Assembly: GCA_963832745.1 (NCBI GenBank)
Contig: CAWHVC010000005.1
Span: 1 to 64,000, forward strand
Direction of reading: 5' to 3'
Source: Candidatus Bathyarchaeota archaeon
GTDB lineage: Archaea > Thermoproteota > Bathyarchaeia > Bathyarchaeales > Bathycorpusculaceae
DNA: 64,000 nt
The notes below the pieces were generated by a model, which was not told the origin of the DNA, searched no databases, and saw only the letters and a program-made list of their open reading frames with translations. Each line of letters begins with the position of its first letter. Positions within the stretch are counted from its first letter, which is position 1. Positions 713-33,128 of the stretch are shown here, one piece after another. The translations under genes and the position numbers were made by a program.

Positions 713-1306
713 TTGGTAATTGAATCGCTTTCTTTATTGTGGCATGGGCCCTTTAGCTTTATTGGAGACCAAGAGAAAAATGTCTTCACTTGCGAGGTAG
801 GCAAAAAGAAAGGCATTTACTTGTTTACAATTCCCTTTGAAGACTCTTACAGGGTTTACTATGTTGGTGAAACTGGCAAGGACTTTGCGACACGTTTGCT
901 TCAACATGTTCAAAGTTATCTTAATGGGTTTTATAGGGTGTTTGACCCAGATGAATTTGTTAAGGGTAACAAAATTCTAATTTGGGGTGGAATGTGGAAA
1001 GTTGACCGTAAAGAGCAAAAAAATATTTGCGATTTCTTAAAGCGTCAGTCAGAGCTTAACCCAAAAATCATCCACTTTATTGAACAATTTAGGGTGTTTT
1101 TAGCCCCAATAGAATGTGATAAAAGAACAAGGGAAAGAATAGAGTCAAAAATTGCCATAACTCTAAATGAGCAAGAGGGAATAGCCAGCAGTTTTCAGGA
1201 CCAAGATATAAGATACAGACCCAGCAGAAAAGATGAACTACCTTTGAGGGTTTCTATGGCTTTTTCTAAACCGATAATGGGGTTATGCAGAGAAATTTTG
1301 GTTTAG
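713..1306 (+). CDS. GIY-YIG nuclease family protein
   Basis: KGIYLF...YYVGET...RLLQH motif. Confidence 0.75.
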   Translation: MVIESLSLLWHGPFSFIGDQEKNVFTCEVGKKKGIYLFTIPFEDSYRVYYVGETGKDFATRLLQHVQSYLNGFYRVFDPDEFVKGNKILIWGGMWKVDRKEQKNICDFLKRQSELNPKIIHFIEQFRVFLAPIECDKRTRERIESKIAITLNEQEGIASSFQDQDIRYRPSRKDELPLRVSMAFSKPIMGLCREILV

Positions 1307-1485
1307 TTTATTTTTTCTGCCCAGTCTTTGCATGGCAGATTAGATTGTTCAATAATTTTTGAAGAAGGGTTTGCAGCTAGATTGCCCATATTCCTCATGT
1401 GAGGAGTTCCAGGCTAACTGGCTTCCCTGCGCCTCTTACCTAGGCTTCTTATAATGTAGTAATTTTTATTTTTGGAGGGGCGGCT

Positions 1486-1629
1486 TCACTGTTTTTGTTG
1501 AATCCACGTGTTTATCGCTTCTTGGACCGCTCGGGATAAGTCACCTTTTTTGCCTCCGAATTTTTGGACGGTTTTTAGTCTGAACTGTTTTTCTAGTTCG
1601 TCTGGGATGTCAATGTTTATGCGGCCCAA
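1486..1629 (-). CDS. Ribbon-helix-helix (CopG-like) protein, 47 aa, not in ORF track
   Basis: Manual translation from TTG: MGRINIDIPDELEKQFRLKTVQKFGGKKGDLSRAVQEAINTWIQQKQ. Confidence 0.75.
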   Translation of the reverse strand: MGRINIDIPDELEKQFRLKTVQKFGGKKGDLSRAVQEAINTWIQQKQ

Positions 1630-1747
1630 TTTTACTTACCTATTTTTGCTAGTTATGGATTTCCGAAATAAGCGAGCAGCCAGTTTTTGTACCTTGTATC
1701 TGTTTTTGTCATGTTTTTTCACTTTGTTTCCGCTTATTCACATTAGT

Positions 1748-1795
1748 ACATATGTGCATAAACACTTATAAACATATGGGTTTAAGTGCATAAAC
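1748..1795. promoter_or_regulatory. Putative operator/TATA region upstream of the RHH gene
   Basis: GTGCATAAAC at 1754-1763 and 1786-1795, ACATATG at 1748 and 1772, flanking CTTATAAA. Confidence 0.4.
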
Positions 1796-1965
1796 TCTGT
1801 CAATGTTAGTGATAAAGCGGCCTCAATTTTTTGAGGGTTTTTCTGTTTTCACAGTATCGCAGTTTGTTCTTATGGCAGCCACTACGCCTGCACTCAAATT
1901 GATGAATCCAAAGAAGCAAATCCAGTTGATTCAAATTAAATCCAAAAACAAATAATCAAGAGATT

Positions 1966-2250
1966 TCAAATTAACGCTTGATTTTGTTCTTCGATCATGG
2001 GCAAGATATTTTTTAATTCGTCAAAATACTTAAGAACAGATATGCCACGTTGAGTTATAGAATAAACCGTTTTATTTTTGCCTGAAATGCTTTCTTATAC
2101 GGTTACTTGTTGCATTAAATAATTCATATTTTCTTTTAGAATAGTGCAGTTAACGTTGGTTTTGTACATTAAATGTGTTATTTTAAGAGATCCCGAAGAA
2201 GAGAGAACAGCAAGTATCGTAACATACGTTTCTAATTTAGAACGCTTCAA
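1966..2250 (-). pseudogene. ArnR1-like winged-helix regulator with in-frame stop
   Basis: MKRSKLETYVTILAVL...KITHLMYKTNVNC...QQVTV*ESISGKNKTVYSITQRGISVLKYF; TAA at 2097-2095. Confidence 0.75.
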
Positions 2251-2328
2251 ACTAAAACCCTAATTATATCATAATTTAATTATTGTAAGTTAATATTTTG
2301 TGCACAGATTTTAGAAAGACAATTTTAG

Positions 2329-3168
2329 TTAACACATTGCAAGTGCTTGAAAGATTCCATAAAGGCGCATTGAATATCTTAATGAGTCTATGGCATCAGC
2401 TACTTGCATCCAAATCTTAAAAAAATCGGAAAAACTCATATCATTACGCGAATAAAGGACTTTTCCTTGCTTGTCATAGTTGATGAATTTTATTTTGTCC
2501 ATAGCGGGGTCATATTGATTCTGAGAGTGCGCAATTGCGTTTCTGATAGATTTTTTTTCTGGCCAATTTTCCAAAAACAATGGCATCTCCACATGCGCTT
2601 TCTCAAGGTTATTCCAAATATCCCAAATCGTCTGCTTTTCATTAGATTCAGGAATAGGAAAATTCATCTTTTCCATTAGGAAGTAGAATATTTTTACTGC
2701 AGAGGAAAAAATGCCTTCGATTGATTGCTCATAAATCGTACATGCATCCCTGAACATTTCTTTGTTTTCTTCAAATGTACGGTTTTCTTTAAGTAAAAGT
2801 AGAGAAAGCGATTTACATAGTGAATTAACGTATTCATCTCGTGCATTCATTTTGTTTAATAGTTTAATTAAATAGTCAGGTGGAGGTTTCTGCGTTTTAT
2901 CAATCTCAATTAAGCCTCTAAAGACAATAAGTTGGGTTTGAGTAAAACATTTTTTCCGATATTCGTTGCCAATAGGATAAGTATTTTCAAACTCAAAACT
3001 AAATGTTTCACCAATTTTAATGACCTCAACCATAATATTGCTTATACTGGAAACCTCCTTTTGTTCCACTTGCCCTACTAATTTGATAATCTGGGATGCA
3101 GTTTTGCAATATCCTTGTTGTTCAAAGAATTTTGCTTCATCCAGAACATTACTGATGTTTTGATTCAT
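2329..3168 (-). CDS. Hypothetical protein with C-terminal HEPN-like RxxxxH motif
   Basis: 279 aa, helical, IRNAIAH; 17 bp downstream of hsdR with GGAG SD. Confidence 0.6.
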   Translation of the reverse strand: MNQNISNVLDEAKFFEQQGYCKTASQIIKLVGQVEQKEVSSISNIMVEVIKIGETFSFEFENTYPIGNEYRKKCFTQTQLIVFRGLIEIDKTQKPPPDYLIKLLNKMNARDEYVNSLCKSLSLLLLKENRTFEENKEMFRDACTIYEQSIEGIFSSAVKIFYFLMEKMNFPIPESNEKQTIWDIWNNLEKAHVEMPLFLENWPEKKSIRNAIAHSQNQYDPAMDKIKFINYDKQGKVLYSRNDMSFSDFFKIWMQVADAIDSLRYSMRLYGIFQALAMC

Positions 3169-3185
3169 TCTTGTTTTTCTCCTAT

Positions 3186-6100
3186 TTAGTTAGATTGTTC
3201 TGCCCAGTATTTGGCGACTTCCTTAGCCTGCTCCAGTACGGTGTCAGTTGCTTTCTGCTGCAAATCAGGCGGATACTTGTAGCGTTTTAGTAAGCGCCGA
3301 ATTTCTATGCGCAAGTTAGCCTGCACGCTTTCCCGCATAGTCCAATCAACCTTGACGTTTCGGTGTATGGTGTCAACGAGTTCTTTTGCCATAGCCATCA
3401 AGGTTTTATCGCCTAAAACGTCTTTTGCGCTCTTATTATCCGCTAACGCATCATAGAAGGCTTTCTCATCCTCTGACAGGTTAAGCTGTACACCCTCTAG
3501 TTGTGCCTTTTGCATTTTCTTGGCATAATCAACCAGCCACTGCACAACTTCAGAAGCTTCAATGCTCTTGTTTGTGTAGGCTTTGATTGCTTTGTCGAGC
3601 AGTTCTTGGAAGCTTCGGGCTTGAATGATGTTTTTGCGGAACCTAATTCTTAATTTCATCCTGCAACAGTTTCTTTAGGGCTTCAAATGCCAGGTTCTTC
3701 TGCGGCATCTCTTTTACATACGCAAGAAAGTCATCCGATAGAACTGAAATGTTTGGTTTATCAAGACCAGCAGCAGCAAAAATGTCAATAACTCTGTCAG
3801 AGATGACTGCTTTTGAAAGAATCTGTCTTATGGCAAAGTCAACATCATCTGGGTGAGTTGATGGTTTATCGCCAGTGTTTTTGACTATTGCTGCTCGTAC
3901 TGCTTGGAAGAAGCCAACATCGTTTCGGATTTTTAGTGCTTTCTGATTTGGCAGAGAAAGTGCAAAGGCTTTTAGCAGAAGTCCTGATTGTTCAAGGTAG
4001 CGTTCTTTTCCTTTGTCCTGTTTTAAGACGTGTTCTTGGGCGTCAATCATTATAGAGAGTTTGTTTGCTTTTTCATTAAAGAAGGGTTTGTAATCAAAGC
4101 CGTGGAAGAATGCTTGGACAACTTCATATTTTTCAAGCATTTTAGCTACGGCAACTGTCTTGGTCTATTCCTGTTTCTTTTTGGTCTTCTTTTGTATAGC
4201 GTGATAGTGCTTGTTTTAGTTCATGCCCGATGCCGATGTAGTCAACAATTAAGCCGCCTTCTTTACCTTTGAAGACACGGTTAACTCGGGCTATTGCTTG
4301 CATTAGGGTGTGTCCTTTCATGGGTTTGTCAAGGTACATTGTGTTTAGGTTTGGTGCGTCAAAGCCTGTTAGCCACATGTCTCGAACGATGGCGATTTTT
4401 AGGGGGTCTGAGGGGTCTTTCATGCGTTCGCCAAGGTCGTGGCGGCGTTGTTTGTTTCGTATGTGTTCTTGCCAGTCTGGACCGTCTGTTGCTGAACCGG
4501 TGATTATTACTTTTATTGTGCCTTTGTCATCGTCTGGGCTGTACCAGTCTGGGCGTAGTTTTACGAGTTCGTTGTGGAGGTCGATGCATATTCTGCGGCT
4601 CATGCAGACAATCATGGCTTTACCGCCAATGAGTCCGCTTCTGGTTTCCCAGTGCTCAACAATGTCTTGTGGCAACTCTGTGGATGCGGTTGGGGCTGCC
4701 AACTACTTTTTCAAGCCGGCTCCATTTACTTTTTAGGTATTCTTTGTTGTCTATTTCTTCGCCTTCTGTTATTTCCTCAAACTCGCTGTCGATTTTGGGT
4801 ATTTCTTCGGGTTTTAGTTCCAGTTTGGCTAGGCGGCTTTCATAGAGAATTTTTACGGTTGTGCCGTCTTCTACTGATTGCCTAATATCATAGACATGGA
4901 TAGGTTTGCCGAAAACTGCTGGTGTGCTTCGGTCAGTTGTTTCAATGGGTGTTCCTGTGAAGGCGATAAAGGTGGCGTTTGGTAGGGCGTCTCTTATGTA
5001 TTTTGCGTAGCCGTATTTTGAGTGTCTAAATCTTTCTGGACTTTTAATCCAAAACCGTATTGGCTTCGGTGGGCTTCATCAGCGACTATTATAATGTTTT
5101 TGCGTTCAGAAAGAAGCGGGTATTGTATGCCCTCTTCGGGGAAGAATTTTTGGATTGTTGTAAATATGATGCCGCCTGAGGCGACTTTGAGCAGTTCTTG
5201 GAGTTCTTCTCGGTTGTTTGCTTGTTGCGGCTTTTGTCTTAGAAGCTCTTGGCATCTGCCAAACGTGCCGAATAGTTGGTCGTCTAAGTCGTTTCTGTCT
5301 GTGAGCAGAATTACTGTTGGGTTTTCCAGTTGGGGTTCAAGAACCATTTTTCCCGTATAGAAAACCATCGTTAGGCTTTTGCCTGAACCTTGCGTATGCC
5401 AAATAATTCCTGCCCGCTTATCGTTTTTGTGGCTTTGATGGTTGAAGCTATAGCTTGGTTTGTTGCGTCGTACTGTTGGTAGGCGGCGATTTTTTTGGTT
5501 AGTTTTAGGCGTCCGTCTTTTTTGTCCTTATCTGCCTCGTAAACAACAAAGTGCCTGATTAAGTCCAAGAGTGTTTTCTTGTTTAGCATACCCTTAATTA
5601 GAACATCAATTTCGGGGACGTTGCTTGGGGCTTTTTCGTTGTTGATGGTTTTCCAAGGCGTGAATCTTTCCTTGTTTAGGCTAAGGGTTCCCGCTCTTGC
5701 TTGCAACCCATCACTTATCACCAAAATTTCGTTGTAGCGGAAAACACTTGGAATCTGCTTACGATAAGTCTCAACTGGGTAAACGCAGAGTCAATCGTTG
5801 CATTTTCATCTGCGGCATTTTTTAATTCAAAGAGAACCAGTGGCAAGCCATTAACAAATAAAATGATGTCAGGACGCCGATTATTGCGCTCCTCAACAAT
5901 AGTGAATTGGTGGATAGCAAAAAACTCGTTATTCTCTACGTTTTGAAGTCAAAGAGCCAAACCACATCATCCTTGATGCCTCCGTCTGCTCTCTTGTACT
6001 GAACATTGATGCCGTTGGTGACCAAGCGGTGAAAAGCCCTATTGTTCTCAATTACCTCTTGACTCTCAGTCCGCAGAACCTTTCGAACAGCCTCATCAAT

Positions 6101-23064: not shown

Positions 23065-23361
23065 TTAAGCGTATAGTGGGTCTTCAAAAATCATGTTTGG
23101 CTCAATCTTTGGCATGTTCTCTTCAATAATCATTGTTAATTTAGAGTTGACTTTGCCGATTTTGTCAATATGAGTTGTAATTATTGTTTTTAGGGCTTCC
23201 ATGTCGGGGGCTTGCACGTTAGCAATTATGTCGTAAACACCCCACAGTGAATGGGCTTCTTGGACGCCGCTGATTTTTTTTAAAGAATTTAGTACATGTT
23301 TTTCGGCGCCTATCTCTGTTGTTAAAAGAATGTATGCTGTTGGCATCTTTTTTTTCTCCAA
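23065..23361 (-). CDS. Lrp/AsnC ligand-binding-domain-only protein
   Basis: AYILL..EIG, WGVYDII RAM domain, no HTH. Confidence 0.85.
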   Translation of the reverse strand: MEKKKMPTAYILLTTEIGAEKHVLNSLKKISGVQEAHSLWGVYDIIANVQAPDMEALKTIITTHIDKIGKVNSKLTMIIEENMPKIEPNMIFEDPLYA

Positions 23362-23815: not shown

Positions 23816-24058
23816 TTAGTGGTCTTCAACTACTATCATTGTTAGTGTTGACCGCACTTTGTCAAGTCTTCGTATGCGCCAGGTCACGATTTCTTTAAGT
23901 TTATCCATCGTGTTTGCTTTTACTCGGGCTACAATGTCGTAGACGCCGTAAACTGCTGATGCTTCTTCTACGCCCTCAACTTGCTTTAGGTCCTTTAAAA
24001 CGTCGGATTCAGAACCAATTTCAGTGTTAATCAATACAAAGGCTGTGGGCATACTCAT
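23816..24058 (-). CDS. Lrp/AsnC ligand-binding-domain-only protein
   Basis: AFVLINTEIG, VYGVYDIV, VRSTLTMIV. Confidence 0.9.
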   Translation of the reverse strand: MSMPTAFVLINTEIGSESDVLKDLKQVEGVEEASAVYGVYDIVARVKANTMDKLKEIVTWRIRRLDKVRSTLTMIVVEDH

Positions 24059-27874: not shown

Positions 27875-28894
<1,020 letters not shown>

Positions 28895-28899
28895 AGCAT

Positions 28900-31113
28900 T
28901 TAAGTCGAGTTAAACCGGTCAAAAGTTCCCAACATACTCATTGAACCGCACGTGGGACATTTATGCAGTGTTCCAAACCAGCTTTTCTTGCAGTTACGGC
29001 AATAAGTAACCACACGGTTGTAAGTGAAAAACTCCAGCGGTTGATGAGACTCAACAAGACGCCGAGTTAAATCTAAAAGAACTTCAGGCGCCACATCAAA
29101 AGCATCCAACTCAACAACACTTAACGAGCCACCCGCAGCTAGCCCAGACAGTTTCTGAGCAAACTCTAACGCTTCAGTTCGTACAGTCAACGGGTCAACT
29201 TTAAGTTTTAACCGTTTAGAAGTAGAGTAAAACGGTTTATCACGGGTTCCAGAAAACTTAACTTTCGCAATCCCGTACTTTTCAATGTCAAGCTGAGCCA
29301 ACCGTTCAGAGGCTTCAGTACGGCACAGGAATACGGGGTAAAGACGTTTACCGTGTCTTCGACCAATTTTGTGCCTGAAAATAGAAATATTCTGAATTAT
29401 TTCATCCACAAACGCTTGACTATCCGGATCGTTTATGCTTTTTGCAGTGAATGCTTCAACAGCTTCCACAAGACCCGCAAAATTGATAATTCTTGAACAG
29501 TTCTCAAGCCTAAAGTAAGCGTCACCATATACACTTTTAAGTAAAAACGGCAAAGAATTTTTCCCAAACTGCTTAATAGTACTGTACTTTATACCCAACG
29601 CTCGCGCAGCTAACTCATAACGTTCCTTAAGCAGGTCAAAAAACTTGTTTTTGTCACCTTCAGATTCCAAAGTGATACGGGGCAGGTTTATGGTTACGTA
29701 TCCTAAGCAGCCCGTGCGTAACGTGTCAGTTTCCCAGTCACCAGTTAAGTCGGATGCAAGCTTGGACCCTGAAGATGAAAAAACCGCAGGCACATTTTCT
29801 TTTTCCGTGGGGTTGGCAAAGTAAAGCATTCCTTGCTGAGAAGCTAAGATGTGGGCGTTTAGGAGCAAATCTTTTGTGTTTTCGTCGTTTAAAACTTCGG
29901 GACTAATTTTTATTACGAATTGTGGATTCATTAACGGTTTATCCAGGGTAATTTCGCTGTAAACTTGAAGAATTAAACCAGCAAGACGGCGAGTTTCTTC
30001 TGCGTAATCGCAGTATTTGCTGTTGGGTTGCCCGTTTGGTCCCACGGCAAGTTTTTCTCCAAGCATTTTAGGAACCAAAAACTCTAGCCCAAAAGTAACC
30101 GGCACATGCTGATTTATATTTAAAATAAACAAACGCAATGTTTCCTTAATTGTGGCGTCGTCAACTCCAACCGCATAAGGAGCCAAAAATACGTTGAAAT
30201 AGCTAAAGATTTGCTGATTACTTGTTTCACGGTCAGAATGCAAAAGCACGTTAAAGGCTACAGTCAAGGCTGATTCTAAACTCTGCGGTGGTTCAAGTGA
30301 AACCTGAGAAATATCATCTAGTTTAAGACCATTTAAGAAAAAGAAGCGCATGTCATGAACTACTTCGCCTGGTTTAAGGATCCATGTGCCTAAATCTTCA
30401 ATATGCATTATACCTGAAAGATGTGCGTCAGCAATATCTCTGGGAAAAATGTTCAACAACGTATATTCGCCAAGAACGTTTTGTCCAGCTTTGGAAATTA
30501 AGTCTTGAGCGTCTAAACTACGGTCTTTAGCTTCAATTAAAGCGGTTACTTCATGAATAGGCATACCTACACGTGTCAGTTTATGGCGGTAATCTTCAAA
30601 ACCTTTCTCAACCAATATGCCGTTTACCACTTCACGAATCAACGAAGCCGTAAGATACTTGGTTTTTGATTTAAGAAGACGTTTTTCCGCTTCTTTGGCG
30701 GCTTTCTGGGCAAGCTCGGGAGGCACTTTTGCCTCTTTAATTAATGAATTAGCTATTTTGTTGGTGTCAAATTCTTCCAAAGTAAAATGGGAAGTGCGAA
30801 CAAGCATCCCCTTTGGAGTGAAAGCCTTTTTTTCTACACGGTCAGCGATATCAAGAACCATCTTGCCAAGGTCAGTGAGAAAATATTTTTTTGCTTCAAC
30901 ATCTGCTTCCACCAAATCGGCTTTGAGCAGGAATTTGAGGTGATATGCAAAGCGGCCAGCATCTCGACTGGGATTCATTTTAAGACTGTTCATCAACTCT
31001 GTGTAGGAGAGTGCGCCTTTGTCGAAGAGCAGATTTAGGATTTGTAGCCTGAGGGGTGAAGAAACTGCTTTTAGAACTTTGACGCCTCGTGCGCGGTGTG
31101 GAAGAGTAACCAT
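28900..31113 (-). CDS. ArsR-like wHTH + ATP-cone + class III ribonucleotide reductase-like fusion, catalytic residues missing
   Basis: wHTH aa ~10-90, ATP cone ~100-175, AHLSG..HI.DL, VTINLPR, C-terminal CxxC/CPxC; no RxxGY radical loop. Confidence 0.85.
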   Translation of the reverse strand: MVTLPHRARGVKVLKAVSSPLRLQILNLLFDKGALSYTELMNSLKMNPSRDAGRFAYHLKFLLKADLVEADVEAKKYFLTDLGKMVLDIADRVEKKAFTPKGMLVRTSHFTLEEFDTNKIANSLIKEAKVPPELAQKAAKEAEKRLLKSKTKYLTASLIREVVNGILVEKGFEDYRHKLTRVGMPIHEVTALIEAKDRSLDAQDLISKAGQNVLGEYTLLNIFPRDIADAHLSGIMHIEDLGTWILKPGEVVHDMRFFFLNGLKLDDISQVSLEPPQSLESALTVAFNVLLHSDRETSNQQIFSYFNVFLAPYAVGVDDATIKETLRLFILNINQHVPVTFGLEFLVPKMLGEKLAVGPNGQPNSKYCDYAEETRRLAGLILQVYSEITLDKPLMNPQFVIKISPEVLNDENTKDLLLNAHILASQQGMLYFANPTEKENVPAVFSSSGSKLASDLTGDWETDTLRTGCLGYVTINLPRITLESEGDKNKFFDLLKERYELAARALGIKYSTIKQFGKNSLPFLLKSVYGDAYFRLENCSRIINFAGLVEAVEAFTAKSINDPDSQAFVDEIIQNISIFRHKIGRRHGKRLYPVFLCRTEASERLAQLDIEKYGIAKVKFSGTRDKPFYSTSKRLKLKVDPLTVRTEALEFAQKLSGLAAGGSLSVVELDAFDVAPEVLLDLTRRLVESHQPLEFFTYNRVVTYCRNCKKSWFGTLHKCPTCGSMSMLGTFDRFNST

Positions 31114-31577
31114 GCCGTTTTTTCCCTCAGCCTTGTTATTGATGCTTTACCCTATAAGTGTAGTGCGGAGTTTAAACTTAGTTAAGGTCATATTTATATA
31201 AACTCTAAATCCTGGAAAGAAGCTAAAATGTCAGTTACTTTTTACGGTTAAAAAAGGACTAGTAGAACATATAATCAAATAATCACAAGATTAAACCGGT
31301 GTAAAGAACCATTAAGGGGAAGTCAATTTATGGTTGCTACTGGGTATCTGTCAGTTTCAGACTTTGCGGTTGTCTGAGGTTAACTGGCGATACTATTTGT
31401 TGAGAAAAAAAGTTAATTTTTATTTTTTTTAGGTTGATTGGACGTTTTTTCTTTTTGAATTGTATATTTGTTGTTCGGGTAGGCAACTTTAAGTTTTTTT
31501 AAAAAAGTTTATTAATTCTTAAGACTTGATTCTCGAGTAAGCAAGTAAGGGGGATAAAAAAAATCAAAATACCAAAA

Positions 31578-32087
31578 ATGTCTGCAACAATAATCGCAGT
31601 AATTGTGGTAGGCATAATGCTCACAACCGTAACAACAGCACTTTTAACAAGCAGCCAAAAAATAATACCGACAGACGGAACGGTAACACCGACTCCGACA
31701 CCAACACCAACCAGCACACCAATAACACCGCCACCACCAACACCCACACCACCCGAAGAAACTGTAGAAATAAACGTCTACTCTGACGACGCATGCACGC
31801 ATGAATACAGCAGTATCACATGGGACGCAGTAGCGCCTGGAGGGAGCACAACTAAAACAGTTTACATAAAGAACGAAGGCACAGAAACCGTTACACTACA
31901 CTTGGCAACATCGAACCTGTTACCCGCTGAAGCAGACGGAAAAATAGATGTAACATGGAACAGAGAGGAACAAACCTTGACTTCCGGCGAAAGCATCAGT
32001 GCTGTATTGACACTTAGTGTTGACGCATCGTTAAGCGGAGTTACAAGCTTCAGCATTGACGTAACAATTGAAGGATCAGTAACGTAA
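31578..32087 (+). CDS. Secreted/membrane-anchored protein with Pro-Thr linker and beta-rich (Ig-like) domain
   Basis: N-terminal hydrophobic helix, PTPTP linker, VYIKNEG..V.L.L. Confidence 0.7.
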   Translation: MSATIIAVIVVGIMLTTVTTALLTSSQKIIPTDGTVTPTPTPTPTSTPITPPPPTPTPPEETVEINVYSDDACTHEYSSITWDAVAPGGSTTKTVYIKNEGTETVTLHLATSNLLPAEADGKIDVTWNREEQTLTSGESISAVLTLSVDASLSGVTSFSIDVTIEGSVT

Positions 32088-32112: not shown

Positions 32113-32322
32113 TTAAAAAACCTGCGCTACATGCATAACAACAGTTACAGCAAAAGCTAACCCACAACCTATAGCTATCCAACGCAGAAGATTCTTATCA
32201 ATACTGAATTTCTCATCATATTCAGGCGAATAAGCTAACAGTTCAGAAGTAGCCAAGAGAATAATAGACATAGCAGCAAGCCACAAACTTAAGTCATACA
32301 AAGACAAAGGAAAAACCATCAA
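32113..32322 (-). CDS. Small 2-TM membrane protein
   Basis: Hydrophobic, translationally coupled to the upstream gene. Confidence 0.7.
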   Translation of the reverse strand: MMVFPLSLYDLSLWLAAMSIILLATSELLAYSPEYDEKFSIDKNLLRWIAIGCGLAFAVTVVMHVAQVF

Positions 32323-33128
32323 ACACTGCCTCTAACAAAATTAAAAACAACTTCAACACCAGCGCCATTAGGCCAAAACGTTTGCTCGCTAATAATCACC
32401 GTTTTACCAGAAGATTTCGCTAATGCACAAGCAACCGCACTAATCACAGGGCAACCAAGCAAACTAACACTTTTCGGCATATCCTCAAGCCTATACAGGC
32501 TCGCATATAAGACGCCAACCATGCTAAGACGCACAGTTGATTCGTCTATAACCTGTAAATCCATTTCTTTGGCTAAACTAAAAAACTCTGTCATGCTTCG
32601 AGGTAAAATATTGCATAATTCTGCGGGAGGAATTGTTGAGAAGTCTATGTTTAGTTGGTTTTCAATTTGATGCAGTACACCGCTGCCGGGGGATGTTATG
32701 AAAACGCCTCTGTCACGTTCAGATATGAATTTGCCGGAAGCTAACTCTTCAAGTGCGGGGAGTCCATTGAAGTTTTCGTCTGCAATGAAAACTATTGAGT
32801 CTTTAAGGTTCTTGTAGTATTCGGGCAAGTAAGCGTTTTGTGGATATGAAGGAATGTAGTAACCATGCCCATTGAATTTTAAATCGTTAATCATTCGGTC
32901 TAAAGTGGAGTAAACCGTGTTTGCTGTACTATCAAGAAGGTTGCTGTCCACGTATTTGCCAGGTTGAGCTAAAGAAAAAATGGCGCCCCACAAGACAAAG
33001 CCCAATCCAATGAAAGCAACTACCTGCCAAGTGTACAACACTGAAAACGCAAGCATCAACACGCCAACTACAAAAAAGCCTACAGCGAGTCCAGTAGAGG
33101 AACGTTTATTTTTAGAAACTTTTTTCAA
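32319..33128 (-). CDS. Membrane protein, 2 N-terminal TMs, possible V4R-like C-terminus
   Basis: GCPVISAVACALAK motif; operon context. Confidence 0.65.
   Translation of the reverse strand: MKKVSKNKRSSTGLAVGFFVVGVLMLAFSVLYTWQVVAFIGLGFVLWGAIFSLAQPGKYVDSNLLDSTANTVYSTLDRMINDLKFNGHGYYIPSYPQNAYLPEYYKNLKDSIVFIADENFNGLPALEELASGKFISERDRGVFITSPGSGVLHQIENQLNIDFSTIPPAELCNILPRSMTEFFSLAKEMDLQVIDESTVRLSMVGVLYASLYRLEDMPKSVSLLGCPVISAVACALAKSSGKTVIISEQTFWPNGAGVEVVFNFVRGSV

Follow-up and report, generated by a model that had tools for sequence, protein, structure and literature searches.

Why would an archaeal genome keep a ribonucleotide reductase (RNR) gene that has lost its catalytic residues and carries a DNA-binding domain at its front? 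This question is raised by a gene in a stretch of 64,000 nucleotides from a Candidatus Bathyarchaeota archaeon (contig CAWHVC010000005.1, positions 1 to 64,000), referred to here as the window. The gene lies on the minus strand at 28900..31113, with its stop codon at 28900-28902, and its 737-amino acid open reading frame (ORF) joins a winged helix-turn-helix (wHTH) domain, an ATP-cone-like domain, a barrel like that of NrdD (the class III RNR catalytic subunit) and a Zn ribbon. A first-pass annotation, made from the letters of the sequence, had proposed that this is an RNR repurposed as a nucleotide-sensing transcription factor and an analogue of the repressor NrdR. The comparisons reported here indicate that the product of this gene is a non-catalytic paralogue of the class III RNR catalytic subunit, fused N-terminally to an ArsR-type DNA-binding domain, and that the wHTH-NrdD family to which it belongs probably acts as an archaeal RNR transcription regulator analogous to NrdR. 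A more detailed reading, whose chances we place a little short of even, is that the protein belongs to a widespread kind of nucleotide-pool reader built from a dead class III RNR, which has kept the cone and perhaps also, at the dimer interface, the specificity site. Its wHTH would set the transcription of whichever RNR class is present by way of direct-repeat boxes, and the deeply conserved gene order regulator, RNR, convergent pyrB would couple pyrimidine synthesis with the supply of deoxynucleotides in Bathyarchaeia and Nitrososphaeria.

Loss of catalytic and substrate-binding residues

The window protein was compared with the live NrdD of the host genome, with 8 other live NrdDs of relatives, and, through a family profile, with the solved NrdDs 8p23, 9d3x, 4coi and 1h78; the numbering of T. 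maritima C125 follows that profile alignment. The position of the bottom-face (reducing) Cys is occupied by E250 (30364..30366, minus strand), which lies in the segment KPGEVVHD and aligns to T. maritima C125 and to the 'PYC' or 'PFC' of the 9 live NrdDs. The finger loop that holds the thiyl-radical Cys in live enzymes, '(M/Q)CCR' or 'MGCR', is represented by the remnant SSSGSKL (residues 446-452, 29758..29778, minus strand). The register of this loop shifts by up to 2 residues between the MAFFT and hidden Markov model (HMM) alignments, and a Cys is found in none of the registers. The C-terminal tail GSMSMLGTFDRFNST (28903..28947, minus strand) keeps R733 and has Ser736 at the radical-Gly position, with the remaining glycyl-radical domain absent; its DRFNST aligns to the live 'SR(I/V)(T/V)GY', and the protein stops one residue past Ser736. 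TFDRF is at least 90% conserved in the close family. The finger loop without Cys, the Cys missing from KPGEVVHD and the ending DRFNST in place of the glycyl-radical loop had all been described in the first-pass annotation, and each of them stands after alignment.

The losses go beyond the residues that had first been noted in the sequence. The HxHD motif survives as H237-I-E239-D240 (30394..30405, minus strand), in which the second His has become Glu, and this second His is gone in 23 of 24 dead forms. Similarly, the NxN substrate flap is present in 9/9 live NrdDs and in 0/24 dead forms. In PMC4493059 and PMC11226230, HxHD is described as binding the substrate triphosphate, and the NxN flap together with HxHD as contacting the substrate triphosphate and base. 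The residues that replace the lost motifs vary across the family (E, S and others at position 250; N, C, E, D and others at position 239), while E250 is nearly invariant in the close family. Some polar barrel residues, H231, D254, R256, N476, E550 and D609 among others, are common to the dead forms and live NrdD. Judged from these alignments, the window protein is a catalytically dead NrdD, and the loss is family-wide, with 24/24 members affected against 9/9 live NrdDs intact; the window protein lacks both catalytic Cys residues and the radical Gly.

Domain architecture and predicted fold

The wHTH occupies residues 13-97 (30823..31077, minus strand) and is assigned to the ArsR/SmtB type by Pfam (residues 13-87, with HTH_5 at 28.5 bits against a cut-off of 22 and DUF7347 at 30.1 against 27.6) and by the secondary structure of a predicted model. 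This AlphaFold2 model, for which an alignment of 65 sequences was the input, has a mean pLDDT (predicted local distance difference test) of 88.1 and a pTM (predicted template modeling score) of 0.80. It places helices at residues 5-16, 20-32, 37-43, 52-64 and 81-97 and strands at 68-71 and 76-79, that is, four helices, a two-stranded wing and a fifth helix, which we take to be the ArsR/SmtB topology. The recognition helix RDAGRFAYHLK corresponds to residues 50-60, and its pattern [RK]DAG[RK]F[AV]YHL[KR] was found in 24/24 family members.

The barrel, at about residues 199-700 (29014..30519, minus strand), is recognised by the Pfam NRDD model at 206 bits over residues 205-726 (positions 12-531 of the 562 in the profile). 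Among the NCBIfam NrdD equivalogs, TIGR02487 gives the highest score, 213.5 bits, under its cut-off of 326.35, and all other NrdD models score far under theirs. A Foldseek search with the model returned 9d3x, 8p2s, 4coj and 1hk8 as the best matches (E 1e-26 to 1e-19); at least the top 30 matches are class III RNRs, and pyruvate formate-lyases rank far behind. Judged by its ten-stranded alpha/beta barrel, the window protein has the class III RNR fold with a C-terminal Zn ribbon. The ribbon, CxxC-N10-CxxC at 28948..29001 (minus strand), is retained with C705, C708, C719 and C722, of which C708 is at least 90% conserved and the other three are invariant. The NLPR strand motif, AxxHxxG, RLAxxD and the GG motif have also been kept from NrdD. 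All four parts that had been read from the sequence, the ArsR-like wHTH, the ATP cone, the NrdD-like barrel and the Zn ribbon, were confirmed.

The ATP cone is a divergent domain of the 'VRTS' type at residues 104-176 (30586..30804, minus strand). Its Pfam match is marginal (PF03477, residues 104-175, 29.9 bits against a cut-off of 25.8), compared with 82.7 bits for a live NrdD of the host's own type (at L048). T107-S108 aligns to K6-R7 in the cone of the host live NrdD ('LKRD'), and R106 stands one position earlier. In PcNrdD, according to PMC11226230, Lys7 and Arg8 form the Lys-Arg pair in the N-terminal beta-hairpin of the cone to which the phosphates bind. The 'VRTS' cone also occurs in live NrdDs of the same lineage, from whose own enzyme the dead form therefore derives. 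The cone residues V105, R106, F115, I120, I159, V163 and L167 are common to dead and live forms. With regard to the specificity site, N288 aligns to T. maritima Gln161 and is invariant in the close family and in the host NrdD, but the position varies across the wider sets of dead and live proteins.

Conservation of the wHTH-NrdD family

At E<=1e-5, 1899 proteins came out of a word-indexed protein search. In the best 120 clusters, identity is 69-88%, length is 736-770 amino acids and the ending is that of the window protein; those of their members that carry a taxon name are all Bathyarchaeia/Bathyarchaeota or Nitrososphaerota metagenome-assembled genomes (MAGs). Public database entries for the close homologues use one of two names, 'ArsR family transcriptional regulator' or 'anaerobic ribonucleoside-triphosphate reductase'. 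An exhaustive search of representatives at 50% identity gave 1719 matches at E<=1e-3 and 315 at E<=1e-30. Motifs were tabulated for 101 full-length representatives (560-820 amino acids), which with the query and the host live NrdD made 103 sequences. Among these 101, the representatives that bear a wHTH lack the bottom Cys in all cases and the finger-loop Cys in nearly all, and the seven that are clearly live NrdDs carry every motif but no wHTH. A long C-terminal tail persists in wHTH members that are more distant; it resembles the glycyl-radical domain with the Gly replaced, and it is entirely lost in the family that contains the window's genome (f1).

Some match was found in 144 of 151 sampled Bathyarchaeia genomes, and a match at E<=1e-80 in 107 of the 151 (counted by hand from the result table). 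Most of the E<=1e-80 matches start within the first 13 residues of the query and thus include the wHTH; the 37 genomes with weak matches only belong mostly to families f18 and f15. Going by cluster names, more distant subfamilies occur in Nitrososphaerales/Thaumarchaeota and in Aigarchaeota, and a homologue is present in the genus Nitrososphaera (Nitrososphaera sp. AFS). Clusters of this architecture in the Atlas for which Promethearchaeota, Thermoproteota or Nanobdellota is the commonest phylum are leads only, and suggest that the family may occur in Asgard and DPANN archaea as well.

Selection was estimated as the ratio of nonsynonymous to synonymous divergence (dN/dS) by an ungapped Nei-Gojobori count, in which dN is if anything overestimated. 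Pairs with L047 (indels, 12-16% apparent identity) and rows with saturated dS were left out. The ratio was 0.097 for the window against its closest relative examined (L039) and 0.135 for L039 against L040, and among the parts the wHTH had 0.018, the cone 0.043, the core 0.119 and the Zn ribbon with the tail 0.039; all of these ratios are rough because dS is near saturation. The wHTH and the cone are under the strongest purifying selection, and none of the four parts has a higher dN/dS than the core. Since the window copy is under strong purifying selection, it still has a function.

In two relatives the gene is broken: at G032:C4:69465-71683 an in-frame TAA splits it into residues 2-484 and 469-737, and at G095:C3:909605-911789 it is split into two overlapping frames. 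These could be cases of real decay or assembly errors. A second dead NrdD-like kind, without a wHTH (P0189, P0208, P0241, P0242 and P0256-P0259), has a canonical-looking cone (VVK.SG) at its start and a VRTS cone after it. The catalytic Cys residues of this kind are missing, and often neither a Zn ribbon nor a Gly domain is present at its end. Several NrdD-like representatives of 1100-1700 amino acids may carry inteins.

Linkage to RNR genes of two classes and to pyrB

In the window, the wHTH-NrdD gene converges on pyrB (aspartate carbamoyltransferase catalytic chain; 27974..28894, plus strand), which ends 5 bp from the wHTH-NrdD stop. This spacing had been pointed out in the first-pass annotation as a reason not to regard the truncated C-terminus as a frameshift artefact. 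The coordinates agree (pyrB ends at 28894 and the opposing stop begins at 28900), and homologues share the length and the ending. The tail-to-tail arrangement with pyrB is found in 10/10 loci of family f1 (the window and L039-L047), with an upstream side that varies.

Outside f1 the gene is found next to RNR genes. Eight of 11 annotated Bathyarchaeia loci have a live nrdD immediately downstream and in the same orientation (L048, L049 with a glutaredoxin gene between, L050, L052, L053, L055, L056 and L057), a proportion that is biased because several of the loci were chosen after a second match had been seen nearby. These eight nrdDs match PF13597 over positions 1-562 at 470-643 bits and have all catalytic motifs. 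The live nrdD is often followed by a small thioredoxin-like gene and then by convergent pyrB (L048, L050, L052 and L056), with pyrI beyond. In a less biased count, made by comparing coordinates by hand over the sampled genomes, 25 of 91 non-f1 carriers and 0 of 16 f1 genomes had a live nrdD immediately downstream, with contig and strand in common.

The linkage is not limited to class III. In four families that have the dead form, no live NrdD was found at E<=1e-100 (f11, 0/14 genomes; f20, 0/6; f24, 0/3; f29, 0/11), and class II-type RNRs are carried in its place. Within f11, the dead gene stands directly upstream of a B12-dependent class II RNR (NF006417, 1198 against a cut-off of 961) in G011, G005, G017 and G023, and one opposite-strand gene lies between the two in G029, G053 and G074. 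In two genomes of one genus, an intervening opposite-strand gene was seen to encode a DUF169 protein (L068:2816-3628 and L069:4207-5046, both minus strand). With a distant family member as query, 34 loci were returned from Nitrososphaerales/Thaumarchaeota MAGs and 10 were annotated. Eight of the ten have the dead-NrdD gene followed by a class II RNR (L087, L090, L092, L095, L096, L098, L100 and L114); of the other two, one is without an RNR and one is at the end of its contig. Convergent pyrB was present at L090, L092, L096 and L114, the four of these loci where that ORF was scanned. The class II RNR of L087 (7279-10740, plus strand) is 1154 amino acids long and contains an intein with a LAGLIDADG endonuclease domain.

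From the same order beside both RNR classes it follows that regulator, RNR (of either class), convergent pyrB is the ancestral order. By this comparison, the window locus is the ancestral order minus the RNR gene, which was lost in the window's lineage, with pyrB as a relic. The loss of the adjoining RNR gene accounts for the tail-to-tail position of pyrB at only 5 bp.

RNR genes of the host and distribution of NrdR

The host genome (3.02 Mb in 5 contigs, 99% complete) contains the separate active RNR for which the first-pass annotation had advised a search. Its one live nrdD is on contig C2 (PF13597 640 bits; NF006126 1057.8 against 548), with nrdR upstream (TIGR00244 159.1 against 124.65) and nrdG downstream (TIGR02495 188.5 against 131.15). 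The nrdR gene of this nrdR-nrdD-nrdG operon is of the bacterial type and lies at 3582-4040 of L001 (G000:C2, minus strand), with upstream sequence to about 4200. A class I or II RNR large subunit was not found in the host genome. The first-pass annotation had also reported that the window contains no NrdG activase, and this is correct: no NrdG-like match lies within the window, and the only NrdG2 match above cut-off in the genome is the one beside the live nrdD.

NrdR itself was above cut-off in 20 of 151 Bathyarchaeia genomes, comprising 16/16 of family f1, the window's genome among them, and 4/27 of f18. None of the 5 genomes with the adjacent dead-NrdD/RNR arrangement that were tested for NrdR had it, so wHTH-NrdD would fill the place of NrdR there. 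In f1, the nrdR promoters (14 aligned) have canonical paired NrdR boxes right after the TATA, of the form aCgCTA-N4-TAGTGT, a gap of 15-16 nt, and CACTA. Taken together, these gene distributions indicate that the lineage that gained an NrdR-controlled nrdRDG operon is the lineage that lost both the adjacent RNR gene and the tail of the dead form.

A second element is conserved about 70 nt upstream of the TATA in the same 14 nrdR promoters, TTGTrTATTTT (about 4150-4165 of L001, and correspondingly in L072-L086). Its sequence is similar to one half of the box at RNR promoters of other Bathyarchaeia, described below.

A candidate operator at RNR promoters

The sequence (C)TAYA(N) was found as a pair of direct repeats in RNR promoters of both classes, with the copies 10-12 bp apart, start to start, and a T-rich spacer between them, just upstream of words that resemble a B recognition element (BRE) and TATA box. 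Examples are CTACAGCATTTTATACAG at L053, CTATAGTATTTTATACAG at L056, CTACATTTTTTTATACA at L066 and GTACATTTTTCTATAG at L068. A position upstream of the BRE is typical of archaeal activators. When the box was written as TAYA-N6-8-TAYA on the gene strand, with at least 4 T in the spacer, it was present in 8 of 14 RNR promoters (nrdD 3/8, class II 5/6) and in 0 of 62 other upstream regions of the same loci. The Fisher p of 1.6e-7 for this difference is only indicative and is overstated, because the box was defined on the same promoters and the genomes are related. Additionally, four copies of the exact 10-mer ATTTTATACA are present in 338 kb (both strands), of which 3 are at nrdD promoters (L048, L053 and L056). 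These boxes may be bound by the wHTH-NrdD proteins, and an invariant recognition helix would fit a conserved operator of this kind.

The divergent intergenic region 31114-31577 upstream of the window gene itself, which the first-pass annotation had singled out as a possible binding target, showed no clear operator: what is conserved among 10 aligned upstream regions of the same family is a core promoter. This element, CTAA-N2-TTTAAAC (31165..31185, minus strand), stands about 55-70 nt before the ATG and is likely a BRE/TATA to judge from its sequence. A GAGGG Shine-Dalgarno-like element lies 10 nt before the ATG (31124..31128, minus strand), and GAGGG-like words occur in 5 of the 10 regions. 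A repeat search of 31100-31590 gave short AT-rich inverted repeats only; the palindrome AGTTTAAACT, which may be a chance occurrence, overlaps the TATA-like word.

A different sequence of 17 nt, AGTCAAnTTAATTTTAC, was seen before the class II RNR gene at L087, L090, L092 and L095, with a second GTCAA-like copy nearer the gene.

Proposed mode of action and alternative explanations

The mechanism that we propose would work as follows. The protein would dimerise through its NrdD body, as live NrdD does, and the two wHTH domains of the dimer would bind the repeat boxes beside the BRE/TATA of RNR promoters. Nucleotides bound at the retained cone, at the former allosteric (specificity) site or at both would then change the DNA affinity or the oligomeric state. 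In the window's lineage, the adjoining RNR gene has been lost, the NrdR-controlled nrdR-nrdD-nrdG operon has taken over deoxynucleotide synthesis, and the regulator has also lost the degenerate glycyl-radical tail that relatives kept.

Several observations weigh against this picture. The DNA-binding and nucleotide-binding roles are drawn from sequence and gene context, and the cone of the window protein is without the canonical Lys-Arg pair. Conservation of the specificity site is not established, since the residue aligned to Gln161 varies in the wider sets of dead and live proteins. The candidate box was defined on the promoters in which it was counted, these come from related genomes, and 6 of the 14 RNR promoters are without it; the RNR promoters of Nitrososphaerales carry a different element, AGTCAA-N9-TAC. 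A strict scan of the host genome for the two repeats gave 23 matches, of which 3 were near a TATA-like word and 0 at a relevant promoter, and the 10 aligned f1 regions upstream of the wHTH-NrdD gene show a core promoter and a Shine-Dalgarno-like element with no clear operator. RNR adjacency was seen in only 32 of 91 non-f1 carriers, in a sample with many short contigs. Finally, a canonical NrdR with canonical boxes is already in place on the host nrdRDG operon. The proposal that an RNR was repurposed as a regulator nevertheless gains strong independent support from the synteny with RNR genes of two classes, from the promoter box and from the distribution of NrdR. The narrower label of 'NrdR analogue' fits the relatives, which were without NrdR when tested, better than it fits the window copy, because the host of the latter carries a canonical NrdR and its boxes.

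How well do other explanations account for the same observations? The protein might be a DNA-binding regulator that does not sense nucleotides, in which the dead RNR body senses redox state or metals through the Zn ribbon, serves only for dimerisation, or contacts the live RNR. The loss of the NxN flap and HxHD motifs of the substrate site, the atypical cone (29.9 bits, with T107-S108 in place of Lys-Arg), the strong conservation of the Zn ribbon and R733 tail (dN/dS 0.039) and the unsettled conservation of the specificity site in the wider alignment would all be expected from such a protein. However, the core of the cone is the best conserved part after the wHTH and is common to the live NrdDs of the lineage, and the linkage is specifically to RNR genes, which fits sensing of the products of that pathway; we regard this explanation as unlikely, although it keeps a real share of the probability. 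A role outside transcription, as a regulatory or scaffolding subunit of RNR or in a heterodimer with live NrdD, with the wHTH used for protein contacts or for tethering to the nucleoid, seems improbable to us. It would make sense of a paralogue of a dimeric enzyme that is encoded beside the live enzyme in 25 genomes, and of the unusual cone shared by the dead forms and the adjoining live NrdDs. It does not explain why the gene also stands beside class II RNR, which belongs to a different sequence family, in genomes without a live NrdD at E<=1e-100, or why in f1 it stands far from any RNR gene, and the invariance of the recognition helix (24/24) along with the lowest dN/dS in the wHTH is what would be expected of sequence-specific contact with DNA.

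The two remaining explanations concern the state of the barrel. That the protein is still an enzyme, with a new, non-radical nucleotide chemistry in the old barrel, might be read from the polar barrel residues common with live NrdD and from the near invariance of E250 in the close family. Against this, all known catalytic and substrate-phosphate motifs are lost and their replacements vary across the family, dN/dS is higher in the core than in the other three parts, and a fused wHTH is unusual for a metabolic enzyme, which leaves little room for this idea. The possibility that the gene is a decaying pseudogene, with residues lost in the window copy alone, was named in the first-pass annotation as the case that would overturn it, and broken copies do exist in the two relatives mentioned above (G032 and G095). 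In the window, though, the gene is an intact frame of 737 amino acids; more than 120 clusters at 69-88% identity share the loss, the length and the ending, dN/dS is about 0.1, and matches at E<=1e-80 are present in 107/151 genomes. Cluster conservation, the shared ending, dN/dS and distribution refute this reading of the window copy, and it can be set aside with near certainty. The regulator reading is preferred over all of these.

Relation to known regulators

NrdR is mainly bacterial, and to our knowledge the control of RNR expression in archaea is largely unknown. The wHTH-NrdD family resembles NrdR in its linkage to RNR genes, in an ATP-cone-type module joined to a DNA-binding module, and in (candidate) operators by RNR core promoters. 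It is not a member of the NrdR family, as an NCBIfam scan gave no match to TIGR00244, and the differences are considerable. NrdR has about 150 amino acids and contacts DNA through a Zn ribbon, whereas wHTH-NrdD has 737 amino acids with an ArsR-type wHTH and a whole dead RNR barrel. Likewise, the NrdR box is a 16-bp palindrome, as in the host nrdR promoter, whereas the candidate box of wHTH-NrdD is a direct repeat with copies about 10-12 bp apart. In family f1 the two proteins coexist. From live NrdD, wHTH-NrdD has the fold, the Zn ribbon, the NLPR strand motif, AxxHxxG, RLAxxD, the GG motif and the VRTS cone of the lineage's own enzyme, but it lacks the thiyl Cys, the bottom Cys, the radical Gly-Tyr, the NxN flap and the second His of HxHD, and it has gained a wHTH.

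The likeness to ArsR/SmtB proteins lies in the HTH_5 score above cut-off and in the (Y)HL(K/R) motif of the recognition helix. However, the NCBIfam subfamily score is under its cut-off (32.7 against 55), and ArsR has its metal site inside the wHTH domain, whereas the effector module of wHTH-NrdD would be a dead enzyme of 640 amino acids. Regulators derived from enzymes are known, including the ROK repressors NagC and Mlc (a wHTH with a sugar-kinase fold), PyrR, BirA and PutA. In these too, a DNA- or RNA-binding module is combined with an enzyme fold that reports on metabolites of a pathway; the difference is that the enzyme fold of wHTH-NrdD is that of a radical enzyme with allosteric sites of its own.

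No description of the wHTH-NrdD family, or of an RNR in the role of a regulator, was found in the literature searched, which did not extend to subscription journals or supplements, and within the same limit on journals nothing was found on DUF7347. A term search of PMC9669993, PMC9531940, PMC3019208 and PMC4390871 gave nothing relevant to the family. The domains are already annotated in databases, where the architecture is visible, while the functional reading and the synteny appear to be undescribed. If the proposal is correct, wHTH-NrdD would be a main RNR regulator in two abundant archaeal groups, the Bathyarchaeia and the lineage that includes the ammonia-oxidising Nitrososphaerales, and the allosteric machinery of a radical enzyme would have been reused as the sensor of a transcription factor. 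Also, the name 'anaerobic ribonucleoside-triphosphate reductase' would wrongly credit genomes, including those of aerobes, with a class III RNR.

Other genes near the locus

The divergent neighbour of the wHTH-NrdD gene (31578-32087, plus strand) encodes 169 amino acids with an N-terminal hydrophobic segment and a linker of Thr-Pro repeats (TPTPTPTPTSTP...). Neither its product nor that of the next ORF (32319-33128, minus strand) matched a Pfam family at E<=1e-5. On the other side of pyrB, two ORFs of 98 and 80 amino acids (23068-23361 and 23819-24058, both minus strand) consist of an Lrp/AsnC ligand-binding (RAM) domain alone, with no HTH. L039 differs from the window just upstream of the malate dehydrogenase-pyrB stretch, where it has a DpnII-type restriction-modification cluster (1022-3413, minus strand) with a D12 methylase, the endonuclease DpnII and another methylase of the N6/N4 kind. 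The window has no such cluster there.

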